From Myxococcota bacterium (GTDB lineage Bacteria > Myxococcota_A > SURF-8): DNA of 64,000 bases. The position numbers and the translations under genes are program-made. Shown here in pieces: positions 23,098 to 31,141 of this stretch. Position 1 is the first letter of the stretch. Every line of letters starts with the position of its first letter. Location of the stretch: NCBI GenBank assembly GCA_965140415.1, contig OZ223209.1:3552001-3616000 (forward strand), in the 5' to 3' direction. Under the pieces are notes generated by a model, which saw only the letters and a program-made list of their open reading frames with translations, was not told the origin of the DNA and searched no databases.

Positions 23098-24051
23098 TCA
23101 ATTCGATTTCAGCACTTTAAGTCGTTCGACCAACGTAGTTAGCCGTTCATCCGCCGCATGAGTGCTTTCAAGGATGTTCGGCTCCAGACGTTCCTGCAAC
23201 ACAGCGGTCCAGTCGATCGAAGGTGCTTGAATAAGCTCGTCAACAGCTTCTATCCGCATGACATTCCCAAGGGAATACTTTTTCTTATCTCCCTTGAACA
23301 TCTGTGTAATTACCAGATCGTTATTGTAAATCTCACCGTCCCAATCCACCACGAATTCATCTAGATGCAAAGGTTGTGAGTTTTGGCGGGATAGATTTAC
23401 CAGTTCCAGTTCGACATCTTTTTGCCAAGCGCGATCGAAAAGAGCCGCAACCTGCTGAAACGCAAGGGAAAGCGCTTCTAATTGAGAACTTGACCATAAA
23501 ACGTAATAAGCAGGAAGCAAATTGAAGCGACGAAATCCCTGCCGCAATAAGCTGCGCAACCGTTCCGGTAACAGATCTGCCGTTTCCGGAGGTATAACCA
23601 GATTGACGATCACCGGGCGAACGAAGCGCGCCAATCGGCGCGACCAGGCTTCGAACCAATCCAACATAACGCAGGCATTACTATCCGGCACACGATACGC
23701 TTTGCCGCCCTGTTGCATGCAATCCAAGCTGATGACCAGTTCGATTCGCTCATCCTGCTCCAAGGTATCCAGGATTTGTTCGGACAGGCGAACACCGTTT
23801 GTGGTTAAGCGAAATCGAATTCCAGCAGCAGAACTTTGCAAAAGGTTCTGCAAAGCTTGCCATTCACACAATGGCTCCGCACCGGAAAAGCGAACGCGCC
23901 CTTTGCCTTCCGGTAAAAAGATGGCCATTGCACGTTGTGCAATGGCCTCGCTCATTGAGTGATTGTCTTTTACGACGGGGCAGTAACTGCATCGCAAATC
24001 GCAATGAGTTCCCAGCACCAAAGAAAGCTTGGTCGCCCCATAAAGCTCCAT
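23098..24051 (-). CDS. Radical SAM protein, second maturase of the His-Xaa-Ser cluster
   Basis: CDLRCSYC (CxxxCxxC), FSGAEP, LTTNG, ISLD; starts 14 nt after the precursor stop. Confidence 0.85.
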   Translation of the reverse strand: MELYGATKLSLVLGTHCDLRCSYCPVVKDNHSMSEAIAQRAMAIFLPEGKGRVRFSGAEPLCEWQALQNLLQSSAAGIRFRLTTNGVRLSEQILDTLEQDERIELVISLDCMQQGGKAYRVPDSNACVMLDWFEAWSRRLARFVRPVIVNLVIPPETADLLPERLRSLLRQGFRRFNLLPAYYVLWSSSQLEALSLAFQQVAALFDRAWQKDVELELVNLSRQNSQPLHLDEFVVDWDGEIYNNDLVITQMFKGDKKKYSLGNVMRIEAVDELIQAPSIDWTAVLQERLEPNILESTHAADERLTTLVERLKVLKSN

Positions 24052-24065
24052 GTCGCTAAGTAGTG

Positions 24066-24470
24066 CTACCAGCTACCATGCGAACCATGGGAAGCATGGG
24101 AAGCATGCGAGGCATGCGATCCGTGGGAAGCGTGGGAAGCATGGGAACCATGAGATCCGTGTGACCCATGAGAACCATGAGATCCGTGCGATCCGTGTGA
24201 ACCATGCGAGCAATGCTGGGCTAAAAGTTGCTCTTCCCCGCTCAGATCATGCAATTGTCCATCGGCGACATCTACGAAATCGTGATGAACGTCGGCGTGA
24301 TCCACATGATCGTTGGCTTCTGCTTCCTCGGAACTAAGAGTGTTTCCCAAAAGCAGGAGAGTCGTGGAAACGCTCAACGCCTGTTTTTTGGTGATCTTGC
24401 CTTCTTCCCCCTGAAGGAACATATCCAGCTTTTTCTTCATCATGGGGATTTTTCGTTTGGCGGAGCTCAT
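24066..24470 (-). CDS. hxsA: His-Xaa-Ser repeat RiPP precursor (HxsA-like)
   Basis: 134 aa ending in 16 HxS triplets plus W; strong AAGGAGG RBS; sits between two radical SAM genes. Confidence 0.88.
   Translation of the reverse strand: MSSAKRKIPMMKKKLDMFLQGEEGKITKKQALSVSTTLLLLGNTLSSEEAEANDHVDHADVHHDFVDVADGQLHDLSGEEQLLAQHCSHGSHGSHGSHGSHGSHGSHGSHASHASHGSHASHASHASHGSHGSW
24072..24215 (-). repeat. 16 x 9-nt tandem repeat encoding HCS, 10 HGS and 5 HAS
   Basis: Counted directly from the DNA; units differ mainly at synonymous positions. Confidence 0.95.
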
Positions 24471-24483
24471 ACATCAACCTCCT

Positions 24484-25965
24484 TTAATAAGGGTCGCATG
24501 CATCGACTTGTCGAATTTTCAGGGTTATCCAGCGACCGAAAATCTCGTTGATTTTCGGATCGTTTTTAGCAATATATTCAAATAAATGATCGAACATCGC
24601 CATAGCAACTTTGCACCGGTCGTTGTTCGGCATTTGACCGAAAATGTCTCCCTGTGTCGAGTAATTATAGATCGGACATACTCCACAGTAGGGCATGTAG
24701 GCGCACTCGGAACACAGCGGCAAACCATCTTGAATGGAAGCCATAACCAGCGAACGCACAGGCTCCGATTCCATCAGTTGTTGATAGGAATCTGTTTGAA
24801 CGTCACCCATCAGGAAAAGATCGTCGCCCATGTGGGCCATCATACGGCCTTCATCGCAGGTAAATACCTGGCCGTTATAATTGTAAGCAACTTGACCGAT
24901 ACCGGCACCGCAAGGAGAGCGCTGCTCCATATAGTTCGGATCCCGATCGGTCAGAATCTTGGTCAGATGAATCGAAGCTGCACGTTCGATCATCTCGACA
25001 CCATTCAGATTCAATTCGATGATGTAGTCAAAGGCTTTTTTGTAAAAGTCGATGAATTCATCGGCGGAATAACCTATCTTGTTCCAGGTTTTCTTGACGA
25101 AACCAAAGGGGTTCAACGACCGGAAATGAATCGATTTCAACCCTAGATCCACGTATTCGTCGATGATTTCCTTCCAGAGTGGCAGAGACTGGCGAGTGGT
25201 CGTCATCAGCGCATCGACATGGAAAGTGTCCGGATTAAAGCCACGCTTTAAGTATTCCACCTGGAATTTTCGAATCCAGTTCACGGTCTGATCGTAACTG
25301 GAATCGGCGGTGCAGATTCGATTGTGCTCGTGCAGATCCCTAGGACCATCCAGCGAAGTACACATGTAGACTTCGTGCTCGATCAGGTAAGCCATCTTCT
25401 CTTCGTCCATTAAACTGAGATTCGAGACGAGAGTAAACGCCAGATCCTTATTCGCCTGCTTATTCTTCTCCGTGGCATATTCCACCACGAACTTCAATAC
25501 ATCCCAGTTCGCCAGCGGCTCACCGCCCTGGAATTCGATATTGATCGCTTCATTGGTCGTTTCGAAAATCAGATCCACAACCTTACGTGCCGTTTCAATG
25601 GACATGTCAAATTCATGCTTGCCCATCGGCTCCCGACTTGCATGGCAATACTGGCAGGTGTAGTTGCAACGCAGGGTAATGATCATGATGTGCAACGTGG
25701 GACCGGCATCCAGATAATCGTAACGATATCGGTAGATTTCCGACATCCGGTTGACCATATCCCGATGCCGCATAAAATCCTGCCTGAGCAGGCGCTGATA
25801 CAATGCACTCCCTGATTCACTCGTACCGGAGAGCATCTGGTCGAATTCATCGTGAGTAAGCAGCAGAAAACGACCGATATCATTGGTAATCAATACTTGT
25901 TCACCAAGATTTCGGAAGCGGAAGAATCCCAGATTCGGGTTCAGTTTTTTAGGATTTACTACCAT
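24484..25965 (-). CDS. hxsB: His-Xaa-Ser system radical SAM/SPASM maturase HxsB
   Basis: GFFRFR..VLITNDIGRF N-terminus, LHIMIITLRCNYTCQYCHAS, IEFQGGEPL, RSPCGAGIGQVAYNYNGQVFTCDEGRM, CSECAYMPYCGVCP. Confidence 0.9.
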   Translation of the reverse strand: MVVNPKKLNPNLGFFRFRNLGEQVLITNDIGRFLLLTHDEFDQMLSGTSESGSALYQRLLRQDFMRHRDMVNRMSEIYRYRYDYLDAGPTLHIMIITLRCNYTCQYCHASREPMGKHEFDMSIETARKVVDLIFETTNEAINIEFQGGEPLANWDVLKFVVEYATEKNKQANKDLAFTLVSNLSLMDEEKMAYLIEHEVYMCTSLDGPRDLHEHNRICTADSSYDQTVNWIRKFQVEYLKRGFNPDTFHVDALMTTTRQSLPLWKEIIDEYVDLGLKSIHFRSLNPFGFVKKTWNKIGYSADEFIDFYKKAFDYIIELNLNGVEMIERAASIHLTKILTDRDPNYMEQRSPCGAGIGQVAYNYNGQVFTCDEGRMMAHMGDDLFLMGDVQTDSYQQLMESEPVRSLVMASIQDGLPLCSECAYMPYCGVCPIYNYSTQGDIFGQMPNNDRCKVAMAMFDHLFEYIAKNDPKINEIFGRWITLKIRQVDACDPY

Positions 25966-26174
25966 GACTTCTTCCTCGCAATCGTTGCATAAAGTGCATA
26001 ATTACCGAATTCATCGAGGATCGAAGCCTGCACGTCTTGATCTACCTGACTGAACTCAACCACATAATGGTTGCCGTCCAGCACCATGCTTGTTTCACAC
26101 AAATGATCGAAAGCCTTCACCGTATCCGAGATTCCAGCTTTACTGTAGATCTTCTTGTTTAAACGAAGCTCCAT
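25959..26174 (-). CDS. hxsD: HxsD-like small protein
   Basis: 71 aa with KKIYSKAGI..AF and ILDEFGNYAL; overlaps the hxsB start by 7 nt. Size and position match HxsD. Confidence 0.75.
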   Translation of the reverse strand: MELRLNKKIYSKAGISDTVKAFDHLCETSMVLDGNHYVVEFSQVDQDVQASILDEFGNYALYATIARKKSW

Positions 26175-26251: not shown

Positions 26252-29200
26252 TCAGGGAGTCGAAGCAACGCCATTTGAAACCTGCAACTCATACGTTCCA
26301 CACGTTACCGTAGAACCGGAACGATATACTTTCACATAGAAAGTAAAGTTCTGCTCTTCGCAATCATTGACGCCAGTTGCACTGCTTGCAGGAGCATTAC
26401 AAGGGCATTGTCCCCGGCCCCAACTCGGGTCAGAGACGGTGGTCGGTGGCCACTGCGAATCCGTAGCGAAATTGTAGTTCGTGACACCACGCGCAACGCC
26501 TGGCGTTCCCGTACCGTCGCATACATCCGCGCTGTACTGGGAAGGACATCCTCCACGATAGACGTCAAAAGCGAACTGACCATTGGGATTATTCGTCAAC
26601 TTGACTTCCGCGTTGAATTCGTCACAACGATTCGCCCCGCTCTCAGGACCATCGATTGCCATAAATGTGAACCAGTCCACATCCGACTCCGGCGCAATTG
26701 TACCGGAAACCACCGCCAATTGCCCGTTATTATCCGTCAAGCGGTAGGGCTCGGATTGAGCGGCGTTATTACAGGTATTGCCTTGACCGTCCTGGTCGTT
26801 CTGATCTTCCAGGCATTCGCAGCCATCATCGTATTCGCCATTGAGATCATGGTAATAGGTCGAACACGAACTGATTTTACATTCCCCTTGATCACAAATA
26901 GGTGTTCCGTTGGCGACCGTACAAACGACACCACAACCACCACAGTTGTTGATGTCATCGCAATCCGTACAGAAATCCTCATCCCGGACACCATCGCAGT
27001 CATTATCCAGGTTGTCACAAATTTCCGGAGAACCATCATACTCGGACCCAAAAAGATCGGTCGAACAGCGCGAAGAACTGGAAGAAGCACATTCAATCAC
27101 GCCCGGGCCACACTCACCGACACCGTCGCAGTTATTGCCAACATTGAAATCTTCGTCGGTGCTTCCATCACAATCGTTATCTAAACTGTCACAGCTCTCC
27201 GACGTGCCACCGTACTGCGAGCCACCGTAATCAGTGGAGCAACGATTGGCCGACAGGTTCTTACATTCGTAGATACCGCTACCACATTCACCTTGTCCAA
27301 CACACGGCAAACCAATGTAATAGTCTTCATCGGTCTGACCGTCACAGTCATTATCTAAACTATCGCAACGCTCCGACGTTCCACCGTATTGCGAACCACC
27401 GAAATCGGTTGAACAACGCCATGAATTCACGTCGGCACATTCTTTGACACCGAGACCACAGACGCCCTGGCCCACACAAGGTAAACCAACATCCCAGTTT
27501 TCATCCGTCTCACCATCGCAGTCATTATCCAGGTTGTCGCAAAGTTCTGCCGTACCTTGATAGTTGGAACCTCCAGAATTGACGGAACAAATACGTCCCT
27601 GTCCACCCGGCGCACATTCCCATTCACCGGTTCCGCATTCGCCGACACCGAGGCATTCCGAACCAATGAAGAAGTCTTCATCGGTCTCGCCATCGCAGTC
27701 ATTGTCCAAGCCATCACAGCTTTCCGGCACATATACGTAATCATCACCGTTGCGATCGGTGGAACAGATCGTGGTCAAATAGTTCTGAGGATCGCATTGC
27801 TTGACACCGATTCCACACTGGCCGACACCATTGCACTGTACACCAATATCGAAATCTTCATCGGTATTGCCATCGCAGTCGTCGTCTTCGTTGTTGCATA
27901 CCTCAACGCCACCGGTGAAGGAATCTCCACCTGGATCGGCTGAGCATTGAATCCACAACTCAGGAGCAACGATTTCCTGATGTGCATTGCCGTTCAAGCA
28001 CTGGAAATAGCCGTTATACTGGCTGCCGTTACCACACCCACCAGTACCGGTACAGGGATTACCCAAACACCCCACACAAGTACCAGGCGGTTCACCGGAC
28101 CCGTAAATAAAGAATTCTCCATTATCTACGGTACCATCGCAATCGTTGTCATAACCATCACAGATTTCCGGTCCACCGTTGTCATTGGCGTTACAGTAGC
28201 GGGAATATGGATCGTTGGGCATGCATCGCCATTCGCCCAGTCCGCATTCACCTTCCCCAAGGCAAATTTCGCCGATACTGAAATCTTCGTCCACTTCTCC
28301 ATCACAATCGTTATCCAGTCCGTCACACAAATCCGGTTGCGTCTGCGGAGCAGATCCACCCGGTTCCGTAGAACAAATCACACTGAACGGATCCAGACCA
28401 GAACATTCCCATTCGCCCCAACCGCATTCACCGGTTCCGTTACAAGGACGACCGACCAGGAAGTCTTCATCGGTCAAACCGTCACAATCGTTGTCGAAGC
28501 CGTCGCAGATCTCATAAGGCACTTGGTTTTCAGGTTGCGGACGGTGACAATAATAACCACAAGGCTGGGCAGGATCGATTGTGTACCAATCCTCATCGCA
28601 GTTCACACCCTCAGCCTTGAAGGCGACATACATGATCGAGTTATTGTTGTCGTTGGATTCCACCCGCAACACCAATTCCTGTTCGAAATCGTAATCATGG
28701 GGACAGAACGTAACCGTAAACTCGATTTTATCTTCGTTGTGATCATTGTAGTTTCTCAGATATGCCGGCATCTGAGGCCACCCTTCGATCTCCCAGTTTT
28801 CCGGAGGACCGGTAGTACGGTAGATCGAGTAACCATAGACTTCTAAAGTTCCTACACCATCGTTGGTGATTGTGACCAAATAGGGATCAGAGCAAGAGTT
28901 GATGAAAATCTCACCCAGATCACAAGGATTGGATTCAACACACAACGGGGTAACTTCGATACTCGGATTCACACCCAATCCGTACAAATCGAACTCGGCA
29001 TAGGAGTGATCATCTCTGAAGTCATTGGTGTTGATCCTGAAACTACCGGTATCTTCACCAGGCCAACCTACCGGACTGTAGGAAAGATCGATATTGGCAA
29101 AGCCTCCGGGTTGAATATCCGGAATCAATTGAGGGAAGAAAGAAAACTCGGTCGAACTACCCGGTCCCAACGTGAGGTTGGACACCTTACACTTGTAGGA

Positions 29201-31141
29201 GCCTTCATTGACGACTCTCAAGCGCAACACCTTGCTCGTTTCCAAATTCACTTCTTCAAATGAAATCAGGTCTTCATCGAAAATTTCTCGGGAACTTCCA
29301 TCGCTGGGATCGACCAGATTAAAAGTACACCAAGGCCAGACTCCCTCTCCACGCAGGGGAATCTCGTATTCGGGATAGGTCGGGTTATTGGTTGTAATGG
29401 TCAGTTTCCCGACGTGAACATACCCTTCCTCTTGGTAAGTCGGCTTGAAAAACATCAGAATTTCCCTTGGGTCATCCTGAAGGCTCAAGATCAGCGGCAA
29501 TTGCGTAACCACCTCTGGATCGACATAGAAAGCATTGGGATCTTCTGAAGGATTCTCCACATTTAAGCTCGTAATGATCAGGTCACCGGTACCACGATTC
29601 TGTACGGTAAAGCCTTCCTCACCCACATCGTTTAGTAGAACCTCTTCGAAATTAAGTGTTGTCGGTTCCACTACGATTACACTTTGAACACCAATACACT
29701 GAACCGGCAACAATTGAATCGGCTCGTTGACATCATTACTACGTACTTCAATGACACCAGCTAGCGGAACGACGCTTTCCGGTTTGCAGAACACACGGAA
29801 AGTTGCGTAATCATTGGGTGCGATAGGATGATTCTCCCCGATGCCACGGGTATCGATCCATAAAAGGTTGGGATCGGGAACGGGGTTTGTCCACTGAATG
29901 CTTTCAATTCGCACGGTTCCACCGCAACTGCTTTCCAGTTCGACTTCCGTGTTCACTTCCTGATTGATTGTCACATCTCCGAAATCCACAGGATTGGGAT
30001 CGATAGTCAAACAGGGAACGACACCGGTACCGGTAAGCGTGAAGTTGACCGGATTTTTGGGTTCGTACCGGCTGTGATCGGCGTTATGATTGATTTTGAT
30101 GACGGCATCGTGAACCCCTTGGCTCGCCGGTTTGTAATAAACCAGGAATGCCATGGAATCACCGGGATTGATGTGTGTCAGTTGTGGAAGGTTTTCCTGC
30201 AATCTGAAGTGCGCGCTCTGTGCAGGTTCCAAGGTAATCGGTCCCACTGTCAACGCCTTATTGGAATCCAGTTCCTGACCAGTCGGAACGACATTCGTTA
30301 CTGTAATTTGAAGAGGAATTTCCGTAGCTCCGACCTCGACCACGCCGAAATCGTACTCAGGAGGATCCGGAGCAATTACGATTTCCGTTTCACCCTTGTA
30401 ATCGCTAGTTAGTTGGATTTCGGTCGTATAACCAATGCAAGGATCGTTTGTAACCAATTCAATAGTCCCAAGATTACGACCGGGGTCACTTGGCGATAGC
30501 AGAATGTTAAAGGTTTCAAACTGTCCCGGAGCGATATCGATCGGAAGACTGGGAGCCCCTCCTTGCCAACTGTAATCGGTATCGGAAGCTTGAGAAATAA
30601 CCATATCAAGAATCTGTAGGGTTTTGAACCCATCGTTCTGGATATTGAACGACTGCACACCAGAATCGTTGATCATCACGGCACCGAAGGACAGACTCGG
30701 AGGATCGATGCTGATGCAAGGATTGTTGTTGCAGTCGCAAGTAGTGGTGTCGCCATCAACGATGTCATCAGAATCGCTATCACCATCCGGGAACATCGGA
30801 GAGCATACAAAATTGTCATCGCAGTACTCATTGGTACCACACTGCACATCCGCGCAGCATTCTGCACTTTCCGGACATGCTGTTCCGTCGTTAACGAGAC
30901 ATACCCCTCCAACACAAATGTACCCCACATCACAATCCGGATCCGTACTACAGAGCGGATTGATGGAATCTCCATCTGTGCTGGATTCGCGATCATCATC
31001 TCCGTTGTCAATCACACTGCTGCCGTTTCCGTCACAAGCCGTAACGAAAAGCAGAGCGAAAAGCATGAGAATGATGAAAAAGGCACCACGCCGCTGCAAT
31101 GAGTTTCGTGTTCTCATTCCGAGTACTCCTAAACTGACCAT
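26252..31141 (-). CDS. Giant surface lipoprotein with about six Ig-like (choice-of-anchor D/ASH-like) domains and nine CDxxDNDCDGxxDE repeats (start may be ATG 31117)
   Basis: Lipobox VTAC; repeated xFG/ExV...(T/S)ND modules; nine ExCxxxDNDCDGxxDE-type units mostly about 59 aa apart; C-terminal DVDWF (PPC-like) module. Confidence 0.8.
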   Translation of the reverse strand: MVSLGVLGMRTRNSLQRRGAFFIILMLFALLFVTACDGNGSSVIDNGDDDRESSTDGDSINPLCSTDPDCDVGYICVGGVCLVNDGTACPESAECCADVQCGTNEYCDDNFVCSPMFPDGDSDSDDIVDGDTTTCDCNNNPCISIDPPSLSFGAVMINDSGVQSFNIQNDGFKTLQILDMVISQASDTDYSWQGGAPSLPIDIAPGQFETFNILLSPSDPGRNLGTIELVTNDPCIGYTTEIQLTSDYKGETEIVIAPDPPEYDFGVVEVGATEIPLQITVTNVVPTGQELDSNKALTVGPITLEPAQSAHFRLQENLPQLTHINPGDSMAFLVYYKPASQGVHDAVIKINHNADHSRYEPKNPVNFTLTGTGVVPCLTIDPNPVDFGDVTINQEVNTEVELESSCGGTVRIESIQWTNPVPDPNLLWIDTRGIGENHPIAPNDYATFRVFCKPESVVPLAGVIEVRSNDVNEPIQLLPVQCIGVQSVIVVEPTTLNFEEVLLNDVGEEGFTVQNRGTGDLIITSLNVENPSEDPNAFYVDPEVVTQLPLILSLQDDPREILMFFKPTYQEEGYVHVGKLTITTNNPTYPEYEIPLRGEGVWPWCTFNLVDPSDGSSREIFDEDLISFEEVNLETSKVLRLRVVNEGSYKCKVSNLTLGPGSSTEFSFFPQLIPDIQPGGFANIDLSYSPVGWPGEDTGSFRINTNDFRDDHSYAEFDLYGLGVNPSIEVTPLCVESNPCDLGEIFINSCSDPYLVTITNDGVGTLEVYGYSIYRTTGPPENWEIEGWPQMPAYLRNYNDHNEDKIEFTVTFCPHDYDFEQELVLRVESNDNNNSIMYVAFKAEGVNCDEDWYTIDPAQPCGYYCHRPQPENQVPYEICDGFDNDCDGLTDEDFLVGRPCNGTGECGWGEWECSGLDPFSVICSTEPGGSAPQTQPDLCDGLDNDCDGEVDEDFSIGEICLGEGECGLGEWRCMPNDPYSRYCNANDNGGPEICDGYDNDCDGTVDNGEFFIYGSGEPPGTCVGCLGNPCTGTGGCGNGSQYNGYFQCLNGNAHQEIVAPELWIQCSADPGGDSFTGGVEVCNNEDDDCDGNTDEDFDIGVQCNGVGQCGIGVKQCDPQNYLTTICSTDRNGDDYVYVPESCDGLDNDCDGETDEDFFIGSECLGVGECGTGEWECAPGGQGRICSVNSGGSNYQGTAELCDNLDNDCDGETDENWDVGLPCVGQGVCGLGVKECADVNSWRCSTDFGGSQYGGTSERCDSLDNDCDGQTDEDYYIGLPCVGQGECGSGIYECKNLSANRCSTDYGGSQYGGTSESCDSLDNDCDGSTDEDFNVGNNCDGVGECGPGVIECASSSSSRCSTDLFGSEYDGSPEICDNLDNDCDGVRDEDFCTDCDDINNCGGCGVVCTVANGTPICDQGECKISSCSTYYHDLNGEYDDGCECLEDQNDQDGQGNTCNNAAQSEPYRLTDNNGQLAVVSGTIAPESDVDWFTFMAIDGPESGANRCDEFNAEVKLTNNPNGQFAFDVYRGGCPSQYSADVCDGTGTPGVARGVTNYNFATDSQWPPTTVSDPSWGRGQCPCNAPASSATGVNDCEEQNFTFYVKVYRSGSTVTCGTYELQVSNGVASTP

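Follow-up and report, generated by a model that had tools for sequence, protein, structure and literature searches.

The closest described relatives of the system presented here are the canonical His-Xaa-Ser (HXS) loci, which Li et al. (Nat Commun 2026) reported to form an antiphage system that keeps phage DNA from entering (PMC13128918). Here we analyzed a related four-gene operon of the HxsA4 type in the genome of an uncultured Myxococcota bacterium (G000, contig C1; a single contig of 5.98 Mb). The operon lies in a stretch of 64,000 nucleotides, referred to below as the window, and encodes a small HxsD-related protein (HxsD_rel), the radical S-adenosylmethionine (SAM) enzyme HxsB, a His-Xaa-Ser repeat precursor (HxsA4), and a second radical SAM enzyme that we call R2. 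The four genes likely represent the core operon of a His-Xaa-Ser maturation system of the HxsA4 type ("type 4"), in which HxsB would modify the H-x-S units and R2 would carry out a second radical step.

In the available part of the report by Li et al., the canonical genes are arranged as HxsD-HxsB-HxsC-HxsA in 99.6% of systems, and Pseudomonadota account for 99.7% of all systems (PMC13128918). HxsB, HxsC, and HxsD are needed for processing at the N-terminus, and a site-specific modification within an HxS repeat also depends on them; HxsA carries a +8 Da modification, which was localized to the last repeat (PMC13128918). HxsC pulled down HxsD, with HxsC as the sole bait, and the HxsB-HxsD contact was untested there (PMC13128918). 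HxsA itself requires a signal peptide and a peptidoglycan-binding domain, and the matured His-x-Ser repeat effector binds DNA (PMC13128918). Canonical plasmid HXS loci adjoin restriction, toxin-antitoxin, and transposon genes. This was the only functional study of the system that we found in the literature on HxsB, and it makes outdated the statement, in an earlier note written from the present DNA alone, that such systems have no characterized product. A function for HXS is thus very recent (antiphage, 2026). HxsA4 and Myxococcota are not mentioned in the text of that paper as far as it was available (PMC13128918), and the names HxsA4, HxsC4, HxsA2, and HxsA3 were not found in the literature searched.

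The open reading frame (ORF) listing places four minus-strand ORFs of 71, 493, 134, and 317 amino acids at 23098-26174. Families were assigned by the curated NCBIfam cut-offs, which are 41 bits for HxsD_rel, 370 for HxsB, 55 for HxsA4, 267.9 for HxsC, 500 for HxsC4, 50 for HxsD, and 121.65 for HxsA. In order of transcription, the features are:

25959..26174, minus strand: hxsD_rel, 71 amino acids, NF038315
24484..25965, minus strand: hxsB, 493-amino acid radical SAM/SPASM maturase, TIGR03978
24478..24483, minus strand: AGGAGG Shine-Dalgarno sequence, 7 nucleotides ahead of the precursor ATG, read from the sequence
24066..24470, minus strand: hxsA4, whole gene, 134 amino acids, NF038313
24216..24470, minus strand: hxsA4 leader region, residues 1-85, from the alignment of 29 precursors
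24066..24215, minus strand: hxsA4 core, residues 86-134 plus the TAG stop, from the translation, unit count, and Tandem Repeats Finder
23098..24051, minus strand: R2, 317 amino acids, a single-cluster radical SAM enzyme with a predicted SPASM-family fold

Three of the four proteins pass curated models. The 71-amino acid protein scores 70.5 bits on HxsD_rel (NF038315), the 493-amino acid enzyme 559 bits on HxsB (TIGR03978), covering profile positions 3-466 of 466, and the 134-amino acid peptide 63.8 bits on HxsA4 (NF038313), or 64 bits in the genome search, with its neighbors in frame. These assignments agree with the HxsD-like, HxsB, and His-Xaa-Ser precursor identities given in the earlier note. 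hxsB is the sole copy above the TIGR03978 cut-off in the genome. R2 passes no NCBIfam cut-off; its top match is PapB at 69 bits (cut-off 340). Since HxsD_rel, HxsB, and HxsA4 pass their models, the subtype is already catalogued, and three of the four parts belong to a branch that is catalogued but unstudied, and myxobacterial. The suggestion that this might be an undescribed subtype therefore holds only in part: the type 4 names are absent from the literature searched and R2 has no curated family, but models for HxsA4, HxsD_rel, and HxsC4 exist and the layout is common in Myxococcota metagenome-assembled genomes (MAGs). What appears new relative to the libraries and literature searched is R2, as a SPASM-fold family lacking auxiliary-cluster cysteines, and the multi-enzyme, partly dispersed organization of the type 4 system.

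The genes are tightly packed. The hxsD_rel stop and the hxsB start share a 7-nucleotide overlap (ATGGTAG). The hxsB stop TAA (24486-24484) is followed directly by the AGGAGG sequence (24483-24478), a 7-nucleotide spacer, and the precursor ATG at 24470, leaving a gap of 13 nucleotides. The precursor ends with TAG at 24068-24066, and 14 nucleotides further on lies the R2 ATG at 24051. This readout matches the earlier description of four coupled minus-strand genes with a strong ribosome-binding site. A scan for consensus promoters and terminators gave no more sites than in shuffled sequence. The arrangement is not due to chance, because the HxsB-HxsA4-R2 adjacency recurs in 59 of 80 related loci. 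By their layout and conservation, the four genes form a real operon.

These 80 loci are the best 80 of 125 relatives found by searching 185,579 species genomes with an R2 alignment as the query. Nearly all are from Myxococcota MAGs, along with two from Omnitrophota, one from Elusimicrobia, and one from Thermoanaerobaculia. In addition to the 59 loci with the full HxsB-precursor-R2 order, three have HxsB and R2 with no precursor between them, nine have the precursor and R2 with HxsB not found (five of these with under 2.2 kb of upstream sequence), and nine have R2 with neither HxsB nor precursor (two with short flanks). A protein search with R2 (E <= 1e-10) in a phylum sample of 401 genomes gave a similar picture. 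R2 matches were found in 61 genomes, 44 of which, besides the window's own, hold a near full-length match at 29-43% identity. We took 7 kb on each side of the best 20 phylum matches; HxsB is directly upstream of R2 in 17 of them, the other three being a pair of loci from one family and a locus that a contig end truncates, and most of the 20 have an H-x-S repeat ORF between HxsB and R2. HxsB occurs in 43 of the 44 phylum genomes with full-length R2, and in the remaining one R2 lies at a contig start. All five other sampled genomes of the family contain the system genes. R2 is, on this pattern of conservation, a co-inherited partner of HxsB and HxsA4. HxsB exceeds its cut-off in 140 of the 401 phylum genomes, and R2 is an accessory partner in roughly a third of the phylum's HxsB systems.

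HxsB has Radical_SAM and SPASM domains by Pfam and an N-terminal extension of about 90 amino acids. Its C100, C104, and C107 and its C-terminal cysteines are invariant across 18 homologues. The nearest solved relative by sequence is CteB (5wgg; E 1.8e-32), and the match extends into the CteB N-terminal region. As in triceptide systems, a SPASM enzyme is encoded next to a precursor with a tandem aromatic-x-x substrate, if histidine is counted as the aromatic residue. Unlike triceptide systems, HxsB passes no cyclophane-synthase model, with 56.2 bits on YhhB (cut-off 445), 56.1 on GrrM/OscB (310), and 70.5 on DynA (450), and no cross-link has been shown for any Hxs enzyme.

The small protein upstream of HxsB is, judged by profile comparison, a remote relative of HxsD. 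It scores only 13.7 bits on the true HxsD model (TIGR03976), and there is no HxsD in the window operon. Of 61 ORFs upstream of HxsB, 55 match HxsD_rel at E <= 0.001, and 48 of these exceed the cut-off. A profile built from 26 homologues matched in 62 of the 80 loci, just upstream of HxsB wherever HxsB was found. Among loci without HxsB despite sufficient flank, HxsD_rel was present in only one of 11 (L110). In two genomes in which the genes are dispersed over three sites (G018 and G048), HxsD_rel stays beside HxsB while HxsA4 and R2 are at other, separate places. HxsD_rel tracks HxsB rather than R2 and is therefore most likely an HxsB accessory. In the single locus that departs from this pattern (L110:5405-6909), HxsD_rel stands directly ahead of HxsA4 and R2, with no HxsB between.

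HxsA4 is built like the precursor of a peptide that is made by the ribosome and then modified post-translationally (RiPP), with a conserved leader and a repetitive core encoded beside modifying enzymes. The core opens with HCS, continues with 15 H(G/A)S units, and closes with Trp at the C-terminus, which makes 16 in-frame H-x-S units; histidine accounts for one-third of its residues (16 of 49). By Tandem Repeats Finder, positions 24075-24209 carry 15 copies of a 9-nucleotide period. In the alignment of 29 precursors, the leader of about 85 residues has a conserved N-terminal motif, (I/L)P..(K/R)(K/R)..FLQ.EE, which takes the form (I/L)P..KKK..FLQ.EE in the window, where an LLAQ entry motif precedes the core. 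Most cores start with HCSH or HASH, contain 7 to 49 units, and end in GQW, or in GSW in the window's family, so that the ends are conserved while the unit number varies between species. HxsA4 was the best family for all 21 related precursors tested, 19 of which are above the cut-off. The HxsA4 branch may provide a simpler substrate for studying HxsB chemistry, as a short leader-core peptide with many identical units. The genome also contains an orphan second HxsA4 gene of 134 amino acids (G000:C1:963744-964148, minus strand), which shares the leader motif, HCSH entry, and GSW end. It sits between housekeeping-looking genes with no radical SAM gene nearby.

The resemblance to canonical HXS extends to an HxsB above the cut-off, a small HxsD-type protein translationally coupled upstream of it, and an operon with a tandem His-x-Ser substrate and a second radical SAM enzyme. 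One alternative is therefore that the window system has the canonical role, with matured HxsA4 as an envelope antiphage effector blocking phage DNA entry and R2 replacing HxsC. HxsB is a full member of the antiphage system's family and HxsD_rel appears to be a remote HxsD relative, canonical HXS also needs radical SAM enzymes to mature its DNA-binding His-x-Ser effector (PMC13128918), and a Tat-signal protein encoded in most relatives' operons hints at an extracytoplasmic stage. However, the substrate differs. Unlike canonical HxsA, HxsA4 is a leader-core peptide with 16 Gly/Ala-type units and a C-terminal Trp, its repeats are Gly/Ala-rich rather than basic, and it scores 17.8 bits on the canonical HxsA model (TIGR03979), well below the cut-off. 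HxsA needs a signal peptide and a peptidoglycan-binding domain, whereas no signal-peptide-like stretch was seen by eye in the aligned HxsA4 leaders (no predictor was run), and Pfam found no peptidoglycan-binding domain in HxsA4, only a sub-threshold collagen-repeat match.

The setting also differs from that of canonical HXS. The window order is D-B-A-R2 rather than D-B-C-A, and the operon's neighbors in the window are metabolic or secreted-protein genes, with no defense or mobile genes, unlike those of canonical plasmid loci. PADLOC gave only weak, generic viperin-type radical SAM matches. The system is chromosomal instead of plasmid- or island-borne, is present throughout the sampled family, and is scattered over several loci in relatives, a pattern that fits vertical inheritance better than a mobile defense island. 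Taken with the precursor, this makes an antiphage role unlikely here.

R2 is not the canonical second enzyme, as the earlier note had recognized. It scores 25.9 bits on HxsC (TIGR03977; cut-off 267.9), over the N-terminal core only, and 22.3 and 20.8 bits on YhhB and FxsB. Canonical HxsC has an N-terminal domain of about 110 amino acids and a C-terminal four-Cys motif, and R2 has neither. The R2 site is also not among the 37 genome matches to the type 4 model HxsC4 (NF038332) at E <= 0.01. Aligned with hhalign, R2 matches the HxsB alignment at E 3.4e-18 over 265 columns, reaching into the start of the SPASM region, and matches six canonical HxsC proteins at E 2.7e-8 over only 166 core columns. 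In a quick maximum-likelihood tree of 69 rows, R2 and all HxsB are separated from canonical HxsC and the HxsC-like genes (Shimodaira-Hasegawa-like approximate likelihood ratio test 98). R2 forms a single clade in this tree (support 99), with an internal order that mirrors the HxsB subtree. By these comparisons R2 is neither HxsC nor HxsC4, but a clade of its own on the HxsB (SPASM) side. HxsB can thus pair with a different partner enzyme, as the HxsA4 branch shows.

Pfam detects Radical_SAM in the N-terminal core of R2 only (37.7 bits; cut-off 29.5) and no SPASM domain. In 20 homologues that are 31-42% identical, C17, C21, and C24 of the CxxxCxxC motif, G57, P60, and L61 are invariant, and a GGEPL-type motif is present. 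R2 has no cysteine after residue 127, and the homologues have no conserved cysteine beyond the first motif. The AlphaFold2 model of R2 has a mean predicted local distance difference test score of 91. Foldseek with this model placed CteB first (5why; E 1.7e-15, query TM-score 0.75), followed by anSMEcpe, ChlB, SuiB, and SkfB. In a second structural alignment, model residues 3-314 align with CteB 5why_A 91-448 (Z 25.9, root-mean-square deviation 3.1, 293 residues aligned), and the model aligns with anSME residues 2-367 with Z 23.9. The aligned span contains the radical SAM core and the SPASM-forming region, and excludes the CteB N-terminal leader-binding domain. The R2 model therefore superposes nearly full length, SPASM region included, on the SPASM maturases CteB (5why/5wgg), anSMEcpe (4k36), ChlB (9gmc), and SuiB (5v1t), at 14-18% sequence identity. 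Unlike these enzymes, R2 lacks auxiliary-cluster cysteines, and unlike CteB it lacks an N-terminal RiPP recognition element (RRE). R2 appears to belong to the SPASM lineage while retaining only the SAM-cleaving cluster, with no N-terminal domain. It looks active, because the CxxxCxxC and GGE-type motifs are invariant, the model is confident, and it superposes on CteB, anSME, ChlB, SuiB, and SkfB. Among radical SAM enzymes that modify peptides, a SPASM fold lacking auxiliary clusters would be out of the ordinary.

The losses in R2, of all auxiliary-cluster cysteines and of the N-terminal domain, could instead mark it as a chance neighbor or a decaying paralogue that is not involved in HxsA4 maturation. 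Some HxsA4 systems do lack R2, and the recorded gene call in the source genome (P0001, 285 amino acids) starts at the internal Met33 and omits CxxxCxxC (window 23956-24051). A bystander would nevertheless not be expected to adjoin HxsA4 and HxsB in 59 of 80 loci, to start 14 nucleotides past the precursor stop, or to keep its cluster and SAM motifs invariant at such low identity. The R2 clade is also congruent with the HxsB clade, and fusions of R2-like and HxsC-like domains occur, either natural or as merged gene calls. We consider this explanation very improbable. The short gene call is shared by several relatives, and many database R2 relatives likewise start at profile position 34, which suggests a systematic error in start-site calling, with loss of the catalytic cysteine motif from the annotation.

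In most relatives the operon is larger. Counted over related loci with sufficient flank, an HxsC-like radical SAM gene lies directly after R2 in 59 of 75 loci, and a second HxsC-like gene follows the first in 36 of 70. Upstream of HxsD_rel, a ~140-amino acid HxsD is present in 54 of 69 loci (65.5 bits on the true HxsD model; cut-off 50), and further upstream a ~166-amino acid protein with a twin-arginine translocation (Tat) signal in 46 of 66. The best families of the two extra radical SAM proteins are HxsC4 and HxsC, below the cut-off. None of these extra HxsC-like, HxsD, and Tat-signal genes was found in loci of the window's own order, and the window locus reads as a reduced form of the larger operon.

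Candidate counterparts are encoded elsewhere in the window's genome. There is one true HxsD, unlinked and about 1.1 Mb away (64.8 bits as an ORF, 67.4 in the genome search), which has its best hit at the HxsD position in 38 of the 52 full-length loci. A single unlinked HxsD is also present in all four related genomes tested. No site in the genome is above the canonical HxsC cut-off of 267.9 bits, and nothing reaches 500 bits on HxsC4, which is the best family for the HxsC-like genes of both the relatives and this genome; the top score is 168.9 at an unlinked site. About 1.5 Mb away (L143:6644-9658, minus strand; G000:C1:2054644-2057658) are three tandem HxsC4-like radical SAM genes with 105, 133, and 169 bits, downstream of a 728-amino acid protein that weakly matches TsoB, a rhodanese/DsbD fusion-like selenoprotein. 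One gene of this trio best-hits the second HxsC-like position in 28 of 52 loci and is sister to that clade in the tree. None of the unlinked genes best-hits the R2 position in the 52 full-length loci. The unlinked HxsD and HxsC-like genes are thus likely counterparts of the relatives' operon genes. The HxsD gene itself heads a cluster (L144:6040-10275, plus strand; G000:C1:4692040-4696275) that continues with a 372-amino acid protein of no family, a 330-amino acid HxsC-like protein (98 bits, HxsC), and a 388-amino acid protein of no family, and this cluster is possibly a satellite operon of the HxsA4 pathway.

For the maturation pathway that we favor, HxsB, with its RRE-like N-terminal region and two auxiliary clusters, would work with HxsD_rel, bind the leader, and modify each H-x-S unit. 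The favored reaction would join the side chains of His and Ser in a cross-link like that of three-residue cyclophanes. For histidine there is a precedent in HtkB, a radical SAM cyclophane synthase that makes a link from His-C2 to Lys-C-beta, according to the available part of its description (PMC11499958). R2 would act second, on the HxsB-bound or HxsB-modified core. Since it lacks an auxiliary cluster, the electron sink of cross-linking SPASM enzymes, its step would probably be a redox-neutral radical one. It is also probable that the unlinked HxsD and HxsC-like radical SAM genes participate, since most relatives have such genes within the operon. The resulting peptide would be rigid, repetitive, and rich in histidine.

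Several points weigh against this proposal. For HxsA4-type systems, neither a product nor a modification or transcript has been observed. The sole measured Hxs modification is the +8 Da on canonical HxsA (PMC13128918), a shift at odds with a simple -2 Da cross-link. The window has no peptidase or transporter adjoining the operon, as the earlier note had stated, and a leader peptidase or exporter is not conserved in the relatives either, which leaves cleavage and export unsupported. The tree was made quickly, has long branches, and contains no outgroup from other radical SAM families, and so it supports the R2 placement but does not prove it. With 23 HxsC-like matches in the window's genome at E <= 1e-10, we infer the assignment of particular copies to the HxsA4 pathway only from best-hit position and tree placement. 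Finally, some Myxococcota genomes in which R2 was not found (L151, L155, L160, and L161) have HxsA4 precursors of the HCSH...GSW type. R2 would thus be dispensable for the basic pathway, and a tailoring rather than a core enzyme, given that precursors of the same design exist without it; its position on the substrate cannot be deduced from these systems. Action of R2 on the precursor Cys or the C-terminal Trp was considered and rejected, as HCSH...GSW ends are also present where no R2 was found.

The function that we rank first for the matured peptide is metal or polyanion binding in the envelope or extracellularly, which has no support from gene context. Such binding fits the composition of the core and the free variation in unit number. 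A narrower alternative is that the product is chiefly a metal-handling peptide, for storage, buffering, or uptake of Ni, Zn, or Cu, with the radical SAM steps pre-organizing the imidazoles. A core that is one-third histidine would suit this, and a unit number of 7-49 between conserved ends is what would be expected if capacity outweighs precise shape. A copper-binding ribosomal peptide with histidine cross-links has also been published, as far as the available part of that report describes (PMC10206099). On the other hand, the operon's immediate neighbors include no metal transporter, chaperone, or metal-responsive regulator, nor is any conserved in relatives, and the one nearby protein with MopE-type metal motifs, described below, is syntenic within the family only. 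A chiefly metal-handling product is unlikely on this evidence.

A bolder version of the favored pathway, possible but doubtful, takes R2 as an unnamed family with the whole SPASM-maturase fold but without auxiliary clusters or a leader-binding domain, which works in trans while HxsB holds the substrate. Alongside HxsB and several HxsC-like enzymes, it would convert a poly(His-Gly-Ser) chain of 7-49 units into a ladder of cross-linked imidazoles, a genetically encoded polymer. The system would then be a vertically inherited, dispersed housekeeping trait in Myxococcota and not a mobile antiphage island. Should the product indeed be such a regular polymer of cross-linked histidines, it would represent a ribosomal natural product of a new kind.

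The protein with MopE-type motifs is a 1629-amino acid protein encoded at 26252-31141 on the minus strand, ending 77 nucleotides upstream of hxsD_rel. It carries six putative metal-binding motifs of this type and Ig-like (ASH/Cep192/DUF1573) domains. The MopE-type motif is common in secreted Myxococcota proteins. A similar protein occupies the same position in relatives of the family (L031, L032, L057, and L058). We considered it as a part of the system and rejected it, as this synteny is restricted to the family and other lineages have different upstream genes.

In the same phylum, HxsB loci without R2 have several other layouts. In L151, HxsD, HxsD_rel, and HxsB are accompanied by two tandem HxsA4 genes. 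L155 and L160 have the order HxsD-HxsB-HxsA4 followed by an HxsC-like gene, and L161 shares this order but has no HxsC-like gene there. L154 and L156 encode a basic HRSHSSH-repeat protein together with an HxsB-HxsC pair that resembles the canonical one, and L146-L149 have no precursor nearby.

A profile search of 1.84 billion representative proteins with R2 gave 638 matches at E <= 1e-30, not all of which are necessarily orthologues. PHROGs matches were to generic radical SAM families only, and the Protein Atlas lacks the R2 of the window, while a homologue stored there has only generic "radical SAM" cluster names. Six proteins of 600-1300 amino acids (P0014, P0018, P0025, P0065, P0068, and P0094) contain two to four tandem radical SAM domains, and some such multi-domain proteins pair an R2-like with an HxsC-like domain, as natural fusions or merged gene calls. 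Lastly, a number of MAGs labeled Klebsiella pneumoniae, Enterobacterales, or Rickettsiales (L062, L085, L095, L096, L119, and others) carry the Myxococcota-type operon. Their R2 and HxsB nest among Myxococcota sequences, so these MAG labels look unreliable.

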